The notes beneath the pieces were generated by a model. It was not told where the DNA came from, made no database searches, and saw only the letters and a program-made list of their open reading frames with translations. This document shows positions 1,897 through 12,274 of a stretch of DNA of 64,000 nucleotides, in pieces; within the stretch, counting starts at the first letter, position 1, and each line of letters begins with the position of its first letter. The stretch is taken from positions 198,969 through 262,968 of the forward strand of contig NW_005434665.1 in NCBI RefSeq assembly GCF_000315625.1, written 5' to 3'. Source of the DNA: Guillardia theta CCMP2712 (lineage: Eukaryota > Protista > Cryptophyta). Made by a program: the position numbers and the translations under genes.

Positions 1897-3736
1897 TTAA
1901 GTACTACACGCACCTTCATTCGGCGACGGCGAAGCTTTCTTGCCGGGAGTGGGAGGATGAGTGGGGTTAGGGGAGGCAGGAGGTTTCTTGGCAGCAGGGG
2001 CAGGAGGCGGAGCCATGCCAAACTTTTGCAGAGCCGCAAGACGGGCTGCTTCTTTCTGAGCTTCCGTCATGCCTCCTCCTCCTCCTCCTCCTCCTCCTCC
2101 CTTGCCCTTCTTCTTCTTGTTATTCTTTCCTCCTCCTCCTCCTCCTCCTCCTCCGCTCTTCACTTCAGTGGCAACTGGCTCCGGCTCCGGCTCCGGCGTC
2201 TCCTCTTCTGCCTGAACTTCTTCCTCTTCGTCCTCGTCCTCATCCTCGTCGTCCTGACAACAAGCATCAGGAAATCGCTTTCCTCCCCTATCCTCCCACC
2301 TGCTTCGATTTCTTCTTCTTCTTCCCCCTTCCGCTCTCGCGCTCCTTCTGAAGGTGAGCGAGGAGCTCTTTGATAGGAGCACGGCCCTTCTCAAGGATCT
2401 TCCTCGCCTTGCTGTCCTTGAGTGGATTCTCGTCCAGGTTCAGGTGCAGCAGGACCTTCTCAGAGAAGTCGCTCATCTCCACTGGCAGCTCCTTGATCTT
2501 GTTGTTGGACAAGTTCAGTGACGTCAGCGCTCCCAGCCGCCCGATCTTCTCGTCCAGATCGTCGATCTCGTTGTAGCTCGCGCTCAGAGTCGCCAGCCTC
2601 GTCAGCTTCTTGTACGCAAGAGGAGACAGACTATCGATCTTGTTCTGGTCGAGCTTGAGGGTGACCAGGTTGTGCAGGGCGGAGAGGGGAGCGATGCTCG
2701 TGATGGAGTTGCGGCAAGCGTCGAAGACTTCCAGCATTTGCAGCGACTCGATGCCAGCAGGGAGCTCGTTTACGTTGTTGTCAGTGAACTCCAGGTTCTT
2801 GAGACTGACCAGCCGCTCGATCTCAGGTGGCAGGCGCGTCAAGGAGTTGTGGCTGACGATGAGGGTTGTGAGGTTCTTCAGCTTCGCTAAGTCAGACGGC
2901 AGCTCAGTGAGCGACTTGGCCGGCATGCGGAGCTTGAGGTTGTTGATGTGCCTGCACTGCCACAGCAACGGGTCAATGTCTGTCTCCTTTCCCTGCTGCT
3001 TCAGGCACACTAGCTCGCAGTGCTTGCTCGCGATGCACTCTTTGATCTCTGGCCACTTGGCATCGTCGGGATTCAGATTCAGCTCCTCCTCTTCCTCCTC
3101 CTCGTCTCCTTCATCAATCCCCTTCTTGCCGCTTTCTTCCTTCTTTGCAATGCCAGAGAATTTCTCCTTCTCCATCTTCATGGCCTTGATCCTCTTTCTC
3201 CTCTCTGAAGCAGTCTCGCCTTCGATAAACTCCACCTCATCTTGGCCGTCATCCTCCTCCTCCTCTTCCTGGAACCCTCGCTCGAACCATTTCACGATAG
3301 CCTCATGCTTGAACTGCTTGGCATAGTCCAACGCTACCTTGCGCTCATCGGACAGGGTGGAGGTACAAACTCCGTTCTCGTAGAGCAGCACGGCACATTC
3401 GTAGTGGCCGTTTCTGCATGCCCACATGAAGGCCGTTAGACCAACATCCTCATCCTTAACCTCCAGCTCCTCGTACACACGCGGCTTCCCCTTGCTCGTT
3501 CCTCTGATGTCCCCTCCTCCTCTGCCCATGATCATCCTCCTGATATGATCCACGATGCTCTCCAAGGAACGCACTTTGCCGTTCTTAGCTGCAACGTGGA
3601 TACCACAGTAGCCATCGTCGTCACGAGTGAAGGGAGTGATACCTCCATAGTTGAAGCACCACCTTATCGTGTCTTGCTTCTGGGATATGATGGAGCTCCA
3701 GAACTGATTTCCCTTGTCTCCGCCCTTGGGTGGCAT
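1897..3736 (-). CDS. Ankyrin-repeat plus leucine-rich-repeat protein with Gly/Pro-rich tail
   Basis: ANK motifs (GYCGIHVAAKNG, GLTAFMWACRNGH) and tandem LxxLxLxxNxL repeats. One short intron after KKKKSKQ joins ORF 2288..3766 to ORF 1897..2394. Confidence 0.85.
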
Positions 3737-4456
3737 CTGAGAACAGAGAGTCAGTGAAGACAACAAGCAACAAAGACAAAATTCACTTCACTTGCACTCA
3801 GACGGCATCTAGTTTTCCAGACTGCCGTCTGACATCTCCCCTCCTTTCACCTCCCTATCTCCTCACAGTCTTCCTCCCCCCCCCCTGCCCCGCAACATCG
3901 TCACATCTGCCCGTCTCCTCGCCCTCCTCCTGCTGCAGTTCCTTCCCCTCCTCCTCCATGTTTCCTCTCACTGACGAAATTAGACGCGCCATGCGCACGT
4001 GGCATACCCCACATCCCCACACATTTGATCCGGTGCGGGCCCGCGGCGCGGGCCGGGCCGGGCCCGACCTTCAGTGACGCCGGGAAGTTTGGCGCGGACT
4101 CTTAGTCACAGTGGCCGCGCCGGTGTACCGTCCGGTCACTGCCGTGAGCCTTCAGTGGACACGCGGCCGGAGTGACACTGCGGTCCGACCGAAACTCAGT
4201 ATTAAGTTCATTTTATTTCACGGTGGTAATAATGTACGAATGATCCCCGAGTCGGCCTCGGATTTTGCTAGGCCACCGCTTTCAACTTCAACGGTGTCAA
4301 TCCCGCCGCCGATCCGACCACGACTTCAGTAGGAAAGGAAATTCAGCTGCAGAAATGAAATTTTTGCCATCGGTAAGAGGGAGAAGAAGGTCAGTGGAGC
4401 TCAAAGATATCCATGGCGCAGTATACGTGGCCGGCGGTCCGAGTGAGCCAGCCCGA

Positions 4457-5740
4457 TCATCGGATTAAGCCAGGTGCGGCATAGATCCACGGCCCCTGGT
4501 CACTCAACGAATGGCGACGTTTCAGTTGCCGACTTACATCAGCAAGTGACTGCTTCATCAGCTGCTGCTGCTCCTCAAAGATTTGCTTCATTTCAGGATC
4601 GAGATCCTGCTTTTCCAGCATGTTGGCTATATTAGTCAACGTCGACATGATGATGCTGTGACTCTTGTACAGATCTGTCTGTTGCCTGATCGCTTCGGAT
4701 TGAATCTGTACGGATCTCAATTCCGCATCACTTGGATGAGACAACTCTTCGGATTCCTTCTGGGGTCCAGGTTCGCTTAGGCGCGTCTGATCTCGACTAG
4801 GGATCGGGAGTGAGTCTCGATCGGTGAGCTTCTGACGTTTCTCGACCTGATTGTCTCCCTGATAGTCCCCAGTCTGCGACTGTACACTTGCAGATGGCAA
4901 GGACTCGCCCGTTCTGCCCTCTGAGTCTGCCGGAGTATCGTCGGGAAACCTGCTGGGCAAGGGATTGACCAACATTCGGGTAATCTCCGGACACTCTCCC
5001 CCTTCATGAAGCCTTCGTAGGTAGTAGACTTCGTACCACGTGACCCGATACTTGGGCTCGTTCGGCCTCGTAGATTTCTTGCCAACACAATGATTGATGA
5101 AGTCTTTCTCATCGGCTGGTTTGTCCCCAGCCTCGGCCTTCCAGTTCTTCTCAGCTGATGTATAAGTCCTCCTCATTTCCTCTATCCTCTTGTTCACTGA
5201 CTCAGCATCGATCTTTTTGGGGTCTCGACTCGGATCCACCTTGGATCCTAGGTTCGGATCCTCTGCGAAACGATTCTTCGGCATCCACTTGGTATCGTTG
5301 AACTGATCCGCTATCATCTGGAGGGCCAAGTTCCTATCAGGCAGGATCTCTGAGGCGCCCTTGTCTTGCATTCGCAGGGCATTTTGCACTTGCACACGAA
5401 TCGAAGGGATCAGAATGGCCTCGAGCAATCTGACTCCTTCTACGCTGTGCCTCCAGTAGTTGACGCCTAACCTCCCTGGACGAGCAGATTCTCCAGCTGT
5501 AGACGCTGGAATCGACGGGGGGTCAGAAGGCTTTGGTTGGAACGCACAGGTTCCATTCTTTCCACAGAACTTAAGGCGTTGTCCCTCCGCTCCCTCCTTC
5601 CCTGGATCGACTCGGCTGAACCAGCACTTATCACATAATCTATGTTTACATGTGAAGGTGATGAAGAGTCGGAACGGATCCAGTATGACCCCACATTCTG
5701 CACAAAGTGTGATGCCCCTGATGCCTTCTGGTGTTGCCAT
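4457..5740 (-). CDS. Single-exon 427-aa protein: N-terminal RING-like Zn finger, possible Myb/SANT-like helical domain, C-terminal coiled coil
   Basis: CAEC-x14-CKHRLCDKC...C-x5-C pattern in a clean long ORF. The central domain call is tentative. Confidence 0.7.
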   Translation of the reverse strand: MATPEGIRGITLCAECGVILDPFRLFITFTCKHRLCDKCWFSRVDPGKEGAEGQRLKFCGKNGTCAFQPKPSDPPSIPASTAGESARPGRLGVNYWRHSVEGVRLLEAILIPSIRVQVQNALRMQDKGASEILPDRNLALQMIADQFNDTKWMPKNRFAEDPNLGSKVDPSRDPKKIDAESVNKRIEEMRRTYTSAEKNWKAEAGDKPADEKDFINHCVGKKSTRPNEPKYRVTWYEVYYLRRLHEGGECPEITRMLVNPLPSRFPDDTPADSEGRTGESLPSASVQSQTGDYQGDNQVEKRQKLTDRDSLPIPSRDQTRLSEPGPQKESEELSHPSDAELRSVQIQSEAIRQQTDLYKSHSIIMSTLTNIANMLEKQDLDPEMKQIFEEQQQLMKQSLADVSRQLKRRHSLSDQGPWIYAAPGLIR

Positions 5741-6335
5741 ACTGACAGATGGAGAGAGGAAGAGGAAGAGGACAAGGAATCTGAGAGGAGAGTCGGCGAT
5801 TTCCTACACTGACTGCAAGGGCATGGCGCGAAAGATCTGGCGGGAGTTTTAAAACTTCGACAATAAACTTTCAACTTCACTGGGAAATGTTTCGACGTCT
5901 GAAAGTTTGTAAAGTTGGACCTGTGACCGTACACCGATGCCGGCCTATGATGTTGCACCGAATGCTGAAGATCAAGAGCAAGAGCAAGAGGAGGAGGAGG
6001 AGAGGAGGAGGAGAATGCAGCAGAGTATTGTATGATAGGAAGCAAGGAATGAGTTGCAGGGCTGACAGAAGGTGTAGCGATTCGCCAGGGTATGACAAAG
6101 GTGCTTACAACTGGAACGCCCCTAGGACCAGAGACAATTAATTCCATAAAAATGCATCTTCGAAGAGCAATCCATCTCGACGAAATGAGAGATTTGATCT
6201 TTGGATCATTGAAAGAAATATTGTCCTGTAATAGATGAGACCGATGAGGGTTATTTATTACCAGGAATAGAATGTTCAACCGTGACTAAGCAAATTGTTT
6301 CTGGACAGGATCTTCATTTTCTTCCTCGATTCGTC

Positions 6336-7000
6336 ATGTCAGTCACTTCTTCAACAAGTCACGATAGCTCAGAACACTCAAACAACCTTCTAGTGAGAGG
6401 CGCCAAGCATCTCAAATGCTGGTCGAAAGGATCCGAGAATCTGCAGCACAAGTTCTGTATGGCCTTCACCTTGGACTATACGGTTTACAACTTTCAGATT
6501 GCGTATAACGAGAAGCGATGGTTCATTCAAAAGAGATATAGCCAATTTGACAAACTAGACAACGTGGTGAGTTGTGATTTCCGTCGTGTCCGAAGTTTAG
6601 TGTGTTGCAGTTGAACGAGAAATTCCCCGACGTGATGATCAGTGTTCAGCGGCTGCCTCCTAAGAAACCATTTGGAAGTCTTAGCCCAGCTCTCATTGCT
6701 ATGAGGCAGAAAAGCCTCGACGCCTACCTGCAAGCCATCCTGATTCGTCCGGTTCTTGTCAGGAGCGAGGAAGTCAGGGACTTTATCGGTACCTCCCCAA
6801 CATCACTCACTTTCACGTGACGAATATTTGTCAGATATGCCCTACGACGTCAGAGAACTGTATGGCGAAGAACAGAGACATCTCATTGCAGCACAGGATG
6901 CGCTTCGTTGATAACATTCATTGACATGTTGTGTTAGTGTTAAAGGGTTGAGATCATCTGAGGTACTCAGGGGCTGGAGACTCCGTCTGACTATTTCTAA
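6336..7000 (+). CDS. Small PX (phox homology) domain protein; ends approximate
   Basis: YTVYNFQI..WFIQKRYSQFDKLD | LNEKFP..LPPKKPFG..MRQKSLDAYLQ..SEEVRDFI is a typical PX pattern, split by short introns. Confidence 0.8.
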
Positions 7001-7073
7001 CAAAAGAGTTTCTCGTGAAGGAATGAAGCACTGGTGTAGTGTTGACATTGTACATCCCTGCTGCAAAACAAAA

Positions 7074-8760
7074 TCAACATGTGACAATAAACTTAATTGT
7101 GTCCTGCTCACTGGTTGAATTTTCTGACCCCGTCAAGCCTGTTGGCTGCGTAGACCCAACATTGCTCCGTCTGAAAGCAATCATTCATGAACCATCTGAC
7201 CACTTGAAGAATTCAGGAGAAATTCTACCTCGGCGGTCTAATTGGCTGGTCGTCTGTTACGAGGAGATCTGAAAGCGCCTGTGCTGGGAGTTCAGAAAAA
7301 AGAGCCTGACAGGTAAAACGGCTTTCACCTGATTCAAAGACCTCACGTGGTCGACCACGTCATCCATGCTATGAATCGCTCCGGTCTTTGTGATAGCGCT
7401 GAGTTGCACTGGATTTTCAACACCCTGCGAGCCTGTGCACACACGTGAGCGCTTCGACATCGCTCTCTGCTCGTCAGACCAGCGGAGCCTGGGGATCCGT
7501 TTGGCATGGCGTTCACCCCAGGGGCATAACGTTGATCCGAATGTTCGAAATCATTCAAATGATCCAGCGAAGAAAATTGTCTTGTTGCCATCATTGTGTG
7601 ATTCATTTGCTTCAACTGCATAATAGACAGTTATGAATGGAATCAAGCTTTGGTGAAATTGCAAGACCTGCGACAATTCTTGCTCGATTGAATTTTCAGC
7701 ATCAGGAAGGGCGAAGGGGTATTGAGCAGGAGGGTTGTCAGACCTTGAAGCCTTCTGAAAATTCATAATCATATCAATTTTAACTGAGACTTCGAAGATG
7801 ATGATGGCAATCGATTACCTGCTTCGCAAATTCTTCTTCCATAGCAGTTGAAATAGCCGTCTTCGTCACTGAGTCTGTTGTTTTGAAGAAAGTGACTGTT
7901 CCGTAGCTTGACCACTTCCCATCCTGTAGATTCCATAACCTGAACATTGAGTGAGACTTATTACACACAGAGATGGGATCATACGTATCCCAGAAAAGAA
8001 CTCCAAATACGTTCTTGGAAAGCAGATCAGCCAGAGCAAAGCAAACCAATATTACACTGCAAATCTGTCAAGTCTAGACAAACAAGGCATCAAAACACCT
8101 TTCACTGGCGACACATGCACCTTCAACCGAAAGGACGAAGAACAGTGGATACATCGTCCACGATGTGAAGAAAATCACTGCCAGCAACCTGATTCTTTTT
8201 GCAATGATCAAATCAATCTCGCTGCCGCTTTCTTTGTAATGTTTCTCTGCAGCAGTGAAGGTGTGATAATTGATAAAGCAAATTAAACCAAAGATTGCCA
8301 TTGCAATAATGAAGAATAGCCACTTGAGAGACTGGTTATGCGTCAAGGCCGCTGTATGCCCGAAGCATATCATGAGAGTGCTGAAATACATCTGCATGAC
8401 ATTGAGGTCAACTCCATAGATTCGAACAGCTGCCATGCCGTTGATCTGGTTCAAGATGATCGGGACTGTTGCCAACCACAGGACGGTCCTTGTCCACAGA
8501 ACTTGCCTCCCATCCCACAAGAGGATGTATCCAATCTCAGAGTATCCAAGGCCATACACGAAGCATTCGGTGAGGGGAACCAAGACAAACTCCCAGGTTC
8601 CCCTCGGGTATCGCAGAGCGAAGAACACGGCTTGGCAGGCACACATAATCCCCCAGCATAATTCAAAAGTTCGAACGCCCAGGTCAATGTTTGAAAGAGT
8701 TACACAGCTTGGATTTTGTGCCGCCCATTCTCCTATATTCAGATTCGTGAAATTAGACAT
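7074..8760 (-). CDS. Anion channelrhodopsin-like microbial (type 1) rhodopsin, 7TM plus long cytoplasmic tail, about 440 aa, about 8 exons
   Basis: Exons 8760-8099, 8056-7985, 7939-7819, 7754-7668, 7615-7480, 7432-7329 and two further tentative exons splice in frame via 42-64 nt GT-AG introns. Motifs: GEWAAQNPSC, ACQ, TWE, PLTE, WTRTVLWLATVP, SWTMYP, GACVASE, LADLLSKNVFG, LWNLQDGKW. These match the GtACR1/2 pattern as recalled. Confidence 0.92.
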
Positions 8761-9714
8761 GCTTCAACTCTACCATGCAAAAGTACCGTATACGACGCTC
8801 ATTGCACTTGATCAGGCGTACGAGAATTAAAATTGACAGTGCATGGACAGCCGATCTTTCTCCTCCTTTCCCTGCAAAGTCGTGTCAGCAAATTCCAACA
8901 AATCTGCTCTATTTCAGAAGCAACCGACACTGACTGTTACGAGCTGCAATCGCCTATGCAGTAGATAACAGTATCTCTACTAATTTCCACTGTTTACATC
9001 ACTAAGTATCGTCTGATATCAGTTTAATTTCAAAGATCTTCAAATTTCATATCGTGTCCGAATGTCGACGTCACGTCTCTCCGAAGAGAGTGAGATTTTG
9101 TTCTCCACTCAAATTCTCTCCCATGCTGTTTACTCGCGAAATAACTTTTGCTCGTGATTCAGTGCGCTTCTCAGAGCTTCTCTCTTCCTCCTCATCCTTC
9201 TTCTCCTCCCTCTCCTCTCATTTCTCTTCTCTCCGCCCTGCCATTGCTTCTGCTTCAAATCAGCCGTTTCACAGACACTGACCACCCCCTTTCTCCTCCG
9301 CTGTACAGTATGACCCCTACCCTCATCAATAACATCAAGTACCCACCCGTTACACTTTCCCCCTAGTCGGACATTTCACCCCACCCCCTTCCTTTCAGTC
9401 CAGGTCATGGCCCTATCTCGAGTCCACTTTCCGCTTGTCTGTATCTGGGCTGGCCTACTACCCCTTTGAATCCCCTAAAAGGACCCCTCCCCAGGTGTAC
9501 CACCTCCACCCCCTCGTACTGGTCTTTTAAAGGCTACGACTAGGGTGTCAAGACCGACTACCCCTACTTCTCATGATCGGTACCCTACAAATGATGTGAC
9601 ATGGACCCCTACCCACCAAGTTGAGCCATTTACTACCCCTGCGTTCGACCCATTTTGCACAACTCAGATTCAAAGTTTTGTAACTGTTCGTAACGTGGTC
9701 GGTTGTCGGCAGCA

Positions 9715-12274
9715 ATGGATCGACCAGGGACGGTCAAGCGCGGTAAGCAATGGAGGAGGCAGGGAAGGGAAAGAGCGAGTGGGGAGGAGGAGAGGGGAGA
9801 GGATGAATTGGAAGGAACCGAACGGGTAGATCAGGGTGGCAAAGCTCTAAAATGGATCCGGAGAAGGGGAAGGAAATGTGCAGAAAGAAGAATGAATTTG
9901 GAAATGTGAATAAGAGTAGAACAAAGAATGTCGGTAAATGATGCATGAAAAGGAAGAGGAGAGGGATAGAAGGAGAATGGTTGGACAGAGTAGACAGGTG
10001 GTGATGATTTGTCGGAGAGTGGACCCAACAGGGGTTGGCCTGAAACGAGTGGCAGGACCGCCGCTTGCTCCTTCGGCAGGGTTTGGTATGCAGCCTGGCT
10101 TGATGGGTCCGCCTGGAACTGTCATGAGGCCTCCAACTGGGGCGCGATTGGGAACGAGCATGAGGATGGGTACAGCCATGCGGCCTGGATCCAGAGCTGG
10201 TTTGGGTCCACTCAATACAAACATCCAAGTAGCAGAACGGCCCGTCACGCAGCAAGGCATGATGGGCATGAAGGCAACAGTGCAGGGACCAGGCCGACAG
10301 ATCGCTGACAAGACCTACTACATGGGTGAGCTGCGGAAGAAGTGCGACGAGATGCAGTCTGAGATCAGAAAGATGAACACCGAGGTGGAGCAGTACAACA
10401 AAGACAACCAAATGTACAACCAGATGGAACGGAAGTATGAAGTTCTCATCAAGGACGTGCGGAAGCTGCAAGGAGACCTGGCAGACTTGAACCTCATTGT
10501 TGACAAGTCGCGCAACAACACCGACCCACAAGACATAGCCAACGCGTTTCAGGCCCTGAAGGGAAAGAACGATGCAGATCGAAAGAGGGTGGATTACCTT
10601 TTCCTAGAGTGTCAAGCGAAGGAGAATGAAATTCGTAGCATCGAGCAGCAATGTTCTGAATTCCAGAAAAAGGCGGAGGAGAAGCTGAACTCGCTCCCTG
10701 CCGAGCAGCGGATGCAGTACGCACAACTCCAAGATGACTACAAGAGGCTCCTTGCAGATGTGGAGCAGAAGCAGTTGACATACGACAATCTCTGCAGACA
10801 GCTGTCGGCAGGCGAGGAAGCGCTGATGGCTGAACCGCTGAAGCAGAGATTGAACTCGATCCAGGAACAGAAACTCAAACAGTTGGAACAGAAGCGGAAC
10901 CTTGAAGCAGAGCTGAACAAGCCGGTGATGAGTGAGGAGGAGGAGAGGGAGATGTTGCTATCACAAGTCAAAGAAGACAACAAACAGATCAAAATCACAG
11001 AGCGAAACATGGAGGAGATCAACTCGCGAGTAAGGCAAGTGCATCAGGACCTTGAGGAGCTCGAGAAGGGTGGGGGAGTGGTGAGTGATGGCTGAAACTT
11101 TGATGTTGAACTCACTCGTTGAGCAGAAAGAGTCGGAGGATGCAAAGAAATATCAGAAGTTGCGTGAGAAGGACCAGGAGATGACGGAATTCATAGAGAA
11201 TTTCGATCAAAAACATTCAAAGGAGTTGACGACAGTCAAGGAGATTGAGACGAGAATTTTCAAACTTCTTGAACATATCAGTAAGGACCTTCAGCGCCAG
11301 CAGCAGCTCCCGAGCAAGGAGAACTTTCAGGACCTGCAGGATGAAGTTGCCGTGAAGCAAAGAGGGTTGGAAAACTCTCAGTCAACAGCAGAGAGATTAA
11401 GGCAGGAGAAGAAAAATCGTGATGCGGAGCTTGAGAAGATTGTTAATTTGGTGAGCTTTCCTCTGTTAGATTTGTGTTGATGGTCCTGCTGAACTTTTTT
11501 GTCGTTCAGGATCAGAAAATCAACGTCGAGCTGACGTCCCTGAGAGAGAAGAGCGAGCAGATGAAGCAAGAGCTCGAAGTCTTCAGCGACATGAACAAGC
11601 TCAAGAAGGTACTGGCAACCTCCTCTTTCCCTTCTACTTTCTTCGCTCTTGACCTCCTTTCTACGCTCCTTCTCTCTCCCATTTCTCTTCCTCTTCATTC
11701 CAAGTTTCACGCCTGACACCCTCCGACAGGATGCTGAGTCCAACAGGGTGGCAATGACCGCAAAGAAAGCCCAGCTTGACTCCAGGAGAAAGGCGCTGAA
11801 GCAGCAGGTGCCCTCCTTGTTCCATCTCCTCGTCCCCTCTTGGTCACTCGCTGGCTTCAGGTTCAGCTCCTCTCCACCGACTTCGACAAGTGCAAGCAGG
11901 ACCTTGCGACCAACGAGTTCGCAGGTGAGGAGGAGGGGAAGAGGAAGGAGGAGGGCGAGGAGGGAGGCAAATAGCATGCTTGAGTTGATCCTCCTTGTTA
12001 GGCTCGCTCGAGGCTGCTGAGCAGAAGCTGCGTCACTACGAGCAGAACATTTTCCATCTCCGCGAATGTAAAGAAAATGATCTCAGGCTAGTCTCGTGAC
12101 TAACTGCCTGCAGTCATCGACAGCAAGGAGGCGGAGACAGATTATGCTTCTGTGTACGAGGAGGTAGCGACGACCCTCCGCCCCCTCCTCTTGCTGACAT
12201 TCGACGTCCAGGTCAGCTCGCAGGTGGCAGAGATCAACACCATCCTCCAGGCGAAGCACTTGACCCCCTTCTGA
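9715..12274 (+). CDS. IFT74: Intraflagellar transport protein 74/72
   Basis: MDRPGT start, GPPGT..MGTAMRPGSR basic N-terminus, QVAERPVTQQGMMGMK..GRQIADKTYYMGELR, then a long coiled coil. Multi-exon. Confidence 0.93.

Follow-up and report, generated by a model that had tools for sequence, protein, structure and literature searches.

GtACR3, a homologue of the light-gated anion channels GtACR1 and GtACR2 of Guillardia theta, was reportedly found, and its activity assayed, in 2015. Data Set S1 of PMC8406140 lists it (accession MT002481) as tested and non-functional, and PMC7714340 states that Gt_161302 was examined for channel activity and showed none. PMC5335703 reports that, of three G. theta ACR homologues, one was robustly expressed yet produced no photocurrent, for which misfolding in animal cells was proposed; its authors regard such misfolding as the most likely cause of GtACR3 silence. 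In E. coli, Gt161302 was not expressed (PMC5288786). PMC8041784 classes the protein as Val-type, by the residue at GtACR1 position 102, and describes another Val-type protein, GcACR_197, as pigmented in yeast with retinal. The signals of this yeast assay were very weak for most ACRs, working ones included, and hence it is not discriminating.

The published work on GtACR1 provides a frame for comparison. Ala61 is described there as one of the five residues of the cytoplasmic constriction, where replacement by Glu strongly diminishes or abolishes the current (48 pA for A61E in PMC5335703). The C102A mutation slows closing and prolongs the current but leaves the channel active; our literature search found no report of C102V. 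The tails of ACRs are said to lack overall conservation, and that of GtACR1 raises nitrate transport and alters anion preference and open-state lifetime (PMC10637977).

The window, as we call the whole stretch of 64,000 nt of Guillardia theta CCMP2712 DNA analysed here, carries a minus-strand gene that an earlier note, made from the letters alone, had described as a spliced ACR-family rhodopsin and had guessed to be an already catalogued third G. theta paralogue. The guess was right. The translation of our spliced nine-intron model is identical to the 461-residue database protein P0005, which is GUITHDRAFT_161302 of G. theta CCMP2712 (EKX52099.1, XP_005839079.1, UniProt L1JUU4, QJF54430.1). 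The GtACR3 row MT002481 of Data Set S1 is, by eye, the same sequence and ends near residue 288. The gene is thus, with near certainty, the already catalogued GtACR3 (GUITHDRAFT_161302, Gt161302). A tblastn search found no second ACR-like copy within the window.

As the earlier note had recognised, the minus-strand open reading frame 8760-8074 encodes a rhodopsin domain that ends ahead of TM7, and removal of two GT..AG introns (42 and 45 nt) restores TM7 exactly as it had been written. Both introns are spliced in contigs of five of the eight public runs, which come from five studies (X1, X2, X3, X4 and X5), and contigs of the same runs contain all nine GT..AG joints on the minus strand. The contig of X14 is unspliced, or genomic-like, at this locus, whereas X12 reaches only the 3' end of the gene and shows the last four joints. 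X21, a set of raw stranded reads of which about 6% was examined, gave 2428 reads at the locus, almost all at the 3' end, which contain the last four joints and place a poly(A) tail at 6903. We conclude that GtACR3 is transcribed because of these spliced joints, as none of the runs is on record as RNA. GtACR3 is a rhodopsin gene that is spliced and expressed, and it belongs to the cryptophyte anion-channelrhodopsin family.

Both ends of the gene had to be moved. The start proposed earlier, ATG 8760, lies inside a 54-nt intron that is spliced in X1-X5; the true start is therefore ATG 8802 and the earlier residue numbers are 4 too high. All the residues that had been named are present, and only their numbers change, from C19/E57/E65/L94/C216/D231/K235/N236 to C15/E53/E61/L90/C212/D227/K231/N232. 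Nor does the gene end at 7074: six more introns follow towards the 3' end and the frame continues to the TGA at 6956-6954, with polyadenylation at about 6903, giving ten exons and nine introns in total (Table 1).

Table 1. Features of the GtACR3 gene, in coordinates of the window.
Feature	Position	Strand	Content or evidence
5' untranslated part of exon 1	extends to about 8862-9236, by run	-	contig pieces
Exon 1, coding part	8787..8802	-	start ATG 8802-8800; contig pieces
Intron 1, 54 nt	8733..8786	-	GT..AG; joint in X1, X2, X3, X4, X5
Exon 2	8099..8732	-	N-terminal cap (Cys15), TM1-TM6, Glu53, Phe54, Glu61, Arg87, Leu90, Val95, Cys212
Phe54 codon	8587..8589	-	aligned with GtACR1 Ala61, cytoplasmic constriction C3
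Val95 codon	8464..8466	-	aligned with GtACR1 gating Cys102; TVP for TCP
Intron 2, 42 nt	8057..8098	-	first intron of the earlier note; run contigs
Exon 3	7985..8056	-	TM7: Asp227, Schiff-base Lys231 (8016-8014), Asn232, Phe238, Asp240
Intron 3, 45 nt	7940..7984	-	second intron of the earlier note; run contigs
Exon 4	7819..7939	-	end of membrane domain (Trp250) and start of cytoplasmic tail
Exons 5-10	7754-7668, 7615-7480, 7432-7329, 7278-7229, 7170-7112, 7060-6954	-	mostly disordered tail; TGA 6956-6954
Introns before exons 5-10	64, 52, 47, 50, 58, 51 nt in order	-	run contigs
Conserved tail helix, residues 377-398	7255..7370	-	conservation and predicted helix; split by intron 7328-7279
3' untranslated region	6903..6953	-	poly(A) site near 6903, 30 reads with loose ends

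The last intron has a tandem acceptor (7111-7058, minus strand), the 51-nt form of which is represented in X21 by 65 reads and the 54-nt form by 10; the choice makes a one-residue difference in GtACR3. Six further database products of the gene (P0004, P0013, P0008, P0011, P0001 and P0009) each retain one or another intron. P0004 ends ahead of helix 7 and has no retinal lysine, and P0008 and P0011 lack the tail helix. These products may be unspliced intermediates or gene-calling artefacts.

A plus-strand homologue of intraflagellar transport protein 74 (9938-11480 and beyond; E = 2e-46 to PDB 8bd7_G) is arranged head to head with GtACR3, at a distance of about 700 bases from the most extended 5' end of the latter, and the common upstream region of a flagellar and a photoreceptor gene may be a matter of chance in a compact genome. 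The 3' end of a plus-strand PX-domain gene (about 6213-7060, E = 7e-11, introns 6567-6610 and 6789-6834) appears to overlap the last GtACR3 exon on the opposite strand, and the two transcripts are joined within contigs of several runs. Of two other minus-strand frames, one is intron-free and encodes a protein with ankyrin and leucine-rich repeats (2288-3787), and the other has about 427 codons, the first of which weakly match a RING finger (4457-5803; E = 0.06).

GtACR3 matches PF01036 (E = 4e-26), and its predicted structure contains seven membrane helices at high pLDDT. In sequence it is matched best by GtACR1 chains (E = 5e-48), which outscore cation channelrhodopsins and pumps by a wide margin, and a similarity of this strength excludes chance as its source. 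GtACR1 is also the best structural match of the predicted model (33% identity, rmsd 1.3-2.1 Å over about 250 columns). In a tree of 42 membrane domains, the rows of which were chosen from 200 stored database proteins, with GtACR1, pumps and BCCRs outside the set, GtACR3 lies together with GtACR2 among the 22 rows of a cryptophyte ACR clade (support 100/99), apart from the channel-like outgroups. It belongs to a nested group of eight rows (100/99), inside which is a group of six (98/92). In a second tree, built from 24 rows, support was 97/94 for the group of six but only 92/91 for that of eight, and a topology joining GtACR3 with GtACR2 was rejected (p-AU 3e-74). The trees agree with the assignment to the ACR family as a paralogue distinct from GtACR1 and GtACR2, to each of which GtACR3 is 33% identical.

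The positions that define the family tell the same story. GtACR1 numbers were taken from a pairwise alignment (GtACR3 number plus 7 after residue 23), in which Lys231 aligns with K238. According to PMC8406140, ACRs have Glu at ChR2 positions 82 and 90 and non-carboxylates at 83, 97, 101 and 123; mapped through GtACR1, GtACR3 has Glu53 and Glu61 at the former and Phe54, Gly68, Ile72 and Leu90 at the latter. The counterparts of C21-C219 and D234/K238/N239 are Cys15 and Cys212, a predicted disulfide, and Asp227, Lys231 and Asn232. Leu90 occupies the D85 position, where proton pumps and bacteriorhodopsin-like cation channels have Asp. By family, then, GtACR3 is a cryptophyte ACR, which we do not file as a functionally confirmed channel. 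It may bind retinal and photocycle; an indirect indication is that its orthologue GcACR_197 was pigmented in yeast.

A more careful comparison of pore and gate reveals both what has been kept and what has changed. The residues C21/C219, E60, E68, Y72, Y81, R94, T101, Y207, E223, D234, K238 and N239 of GtACR1 are retained. Those replaced are P58 (Thr51), A61 (Phe54), L64 (Val57), S97 (Leu90), C102 (Val95), M105 (Ile98), L108 (Gln101) and L245 (Phe238). The earlier note was silent on Phe54 and on Val95, which stands in place of the gating Cys102. With Val95 in a TVP motif rather than the Cys and TCP of the GtACR1/2-like Cys-type, and with its grouping in the tree, GtACR3 belongs to the Val-type branch, one member of which (P0191) has Ala at this position. 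All seven stored branch members that were checked have Phe at the Ala61 position, and where TM7 reaches the cytoplasmic side the branch has one acidic residue more (Asp240). Close to the chromophore its members differ from one another, with Leu, His or Gly at the S97 position and Tyr, His or Ile at that of Y207. Bulk at the S97 position was considered as the cause of silence and rejected, as by eye the functional PsuACR_353 has Ile there and the functional R5ACR has His. Outside the cryptophyte ACR clade, the channelrhodopsin-like proteins P0067 and P0068 also have TVP in TM3 and P0057 has TLP; hence, the gating Cys has been lost more than once.

The silence of GtACR3 is shared by its relatives. 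HpACR_213, C1ACR_561, GcACR_197 and R3ACR3 resemble it in having TVP in TM3, Phe or Tyr at the Ala61 position and W-D at the end of TM7, and all four are likewise listed in Data Set S1 as tested and non-functional. The Val-type class was named in PMC8041784, and HpACR_213, C1ACR_561 and R3ACR3 were assigned to it here by the TVP motif. By our tally by eye, Data Set S1 has 51 rows of tested cryptophyte ACRs, of which 39 are functional and 12 are not. None of the five rows with Val at position 102 (GtACR3 and the four above) is functional compared to 39 of the 46 others (Fisher p 3e-4). For position 61, the figures are none of seven with Phe, Tyr or Leu compared to 39 of 44 with a small residue, i.e. 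Ala, Ser, Thr, Gly or Pro (Fisher p 7e-6), both p values being overstated because the silent rows are close kin. The seven bulky rows are the five Val rows and two Hemiselmis proteins; in five other silent ACRs, position 61 is occupied by a small residue. Six TVP-containing strings, searched for throughout Data Set S1, gave eight rows, one untested and seven tested, all of them non-functional and two of them haptophyte proteins. As the silent rows form one clade and its sister group, silence looks like a heritable property of the branch, but its cause is not singled out: the correlation cannot pick among Phe54, Val95 and a missing tail.

The tail deserves attention in its own right. For residues 251-461, disorder is predicted over most of the length, together with a moderately confident helix at 378-395 (block pLDDT 72 and 58), about 125 residues beyond TM7. 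Residues 377-398, which include this helix and show a hydrophobic heptad, are identical in Hanusia at 22 of 22 positions and in four distant orthologues (Baffinella, Teleaulax and two more) at 19 of 22, whereas the rest of the tail retains only 20-24 of 189 residues in the same four (about 12%) and the membrane domain 41-48%. A profile built from four seeds, which match by construction, recovered 34 of the 200 stored proteins at E below 1e-15. They represent six 90% clusters, all of this branch, and the carriers constitute one branch in both trees (98/92 with 42 rows, 97/94 with 24). No full-length non-Val ACR among the 200 matched the helix; the comparison covers full-length rows, the nearest rows outside the branch, P0019 and P0023, being fragments. 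The next match, P0083 (E = 0.002), was discarded because it lies inside a response-regulator domain. This protein is one of several distant channelrhodopsin-like proteins with long tails (also P0069, P0077, P0044, P0106 and P0086); its receiver domain follows directly after the membrane domain (E = 4e-7), and the other five look similar by eye. Searches of Pfam and the Atlas gave no domain match or look-alike for the GtACR3 tail, which shows neither novelty nor absence. The full-length Hanusia and Baffinella proteins, with membrane domains 91% and 48% identical to that of GtACR3, carry the helix, while GtACR3, HpACR_213 and C1ACR_561 as published in Data Set S1 stop short of it, at about residues 288-300.

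The explanation that we favour, tentatively and at somewhat less than an even chance, is that GtACR3 is a light-gated anion channel with a tightened cytoplasmic gate, which would open appreciably only when the protein is full-length or has a partner bound at the tail helix. This estimate covers the mechanism, the steps of which we infer wherever they go past the sequence facts. Retinal on Lys231 would isomerise and drive the gating path of ACRs. Phe54 and Phe238, at the positions of Ala61 and Leu245, would narrow the cytoplasmic constriction, and with Val95 the gating switch of Cys102 would be lost. A partner or a second copy would bind to the amphipathic helix 377-398, and appreciable opening would need this helix or whatever binds to it. 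The retention of most GtACR1 channel residues in the alignment and the silence throughout the tested Val-type branch (none of five functional) are in favour of such a channel, as are the fit of the predicted model to GtACR1, the effect of Glu at the GtACR1 constriction, the pigment of GcACR_197, the conservation of the tail helix and the influence of the GtACR1 tail on its channel. On the other hand, no branch member has shown a current, and conduction is unproven. Further points against the mechanism are that A61E adds charge besides bulk and so is no test of Phe, that C102A prolongs the GtACR1 current rather than abolishing it, and that removal of the tail leaves conduction by other ACRs good.

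It is possible, though on balance doubtful, that the Val-type branch has instead given up conduction. GtACR3 would then sense light with its retinal, or act as a regulatory subunit that pairs with GtACR1/2, and signal via the tail helix; its branch would be an old cryptophyte lineage where a Phe plug at the cytoplasmic constriction and the loss of the gating Cys have shut the pore. The same zero of five fits this reading, as do the two gate positions changed across the branch, the variable positions near the chromophore, the two haptophyte TVP proteins listed as non-functional, and a tail helix (19 of 22) so much better conserved than the membrane domain. The retention of most pore-lining residues of GtACR1 is harder to reconcile with it, and the tail has neither a recognisable domain nor a known partner. 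If GtACR3 does not conduct, a role of channelrhodopsin-like proteins in signalling or regulation would be indicated for cryptophytes, and nature would have provided both a "pseudo-channel" photoreceptor and an experiment on ACR opening.

The misfolding proposed in PMC5335703 would make GtACR3 an ordinary anion channelrhodopsin with a merely technical silence, due to poor folding or trafficking in animal cells. Its family signature is intact and seven of the 46 non-Val ACRs also failed. However, five proteins from five genera, some less than 50% identical to GtACR3, failed without exception while 85% of the others work; moreover, PMC5335703 itself calls expression robust and PMC8041784 reports pigment for GcACR_197. 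We consider a technical cause unlikely.

Weak conduction or pumping of protons or other cations is more improbable still. The prasinophyte proteins of PMC8406140 with the ACR glutamate pattern are cation selective, and the branch-wide Asp240 could be read in the same sense, but Leu90 at the proton-acceptor position and the placement inside cryptophyte ACRs speak against it, all selectivity-tested cryptophyte ACR rows are treated as anion channels in Data Set S1, and the published accounts report no current of any kind. Finally, a decaying duplicate or pseudogene, to which the absence of activity, the intron-retaining products and the absence of GtACR3 from the 25 rhodopsin genes quantified in PMC7714340 might point, is hardly credible and in substance refuted by conservation: the intact 461-codon frame is spliced in five studies, 227 of 250 membrane-domain residues are identical in the Hanusia orthologue, orthologues exist across cryptophytes, and a recent origin from GtACR2 is rejected by the p-AU value given above.

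The suggestion that this gene is a candidate optogenetic silencer does not hold, as the construct proposed for it (about 290 residues, in animal cells) has already been published and gave no photocurrent; as a new silencer, a known protein listed as silent has no significance. What remains is a small question, now testable, namely the reason for the lack of current across an entire conserved branch of ACR homologues. The gene, its family and its silence were already known, and the new elements appear to be the position-61 pattern and the tail helix. Neither Phe or Tyr at the Ala61 position across the Val-type branch nor the conserved tail helix was found in print, in searches that for both covered mostly open-access text without figures or image supplements.

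In summary, the locus compares with known systems as follows. With the described GtACR3/Gt161302 (MT002481) it shares gene and protein, the published construct lacking the tail helix. Chlorophyte cation channelrhodopsins (ChR2, C1C2) and bacteriorhodopsin-like pumps and channels have the same seven-helix retinal-binding fold, but are only about 20% identical to GtACR3, which has no carboxylate at the D85 position. GtACR1 (PDB 6CSM, 6EDQ, 7L1E) and GtACR2 have in common with it the fold, the disulfide pair, E60/E68, R94, a neutral D85 position and D234/K238/N239, and differ from it in the exchanges of Cys102 for Val, Ala61 for Phe, Ser97 for Leu, Leu245 for Phe and Pro58 for Thr. The GtACR3 tail is also far less charged, with 8% Lys and Arg compared to the 27% reported for GtACR1, and, whereas GtACR1 and GtACR2 give large anion currents, GtACR3 gives none.
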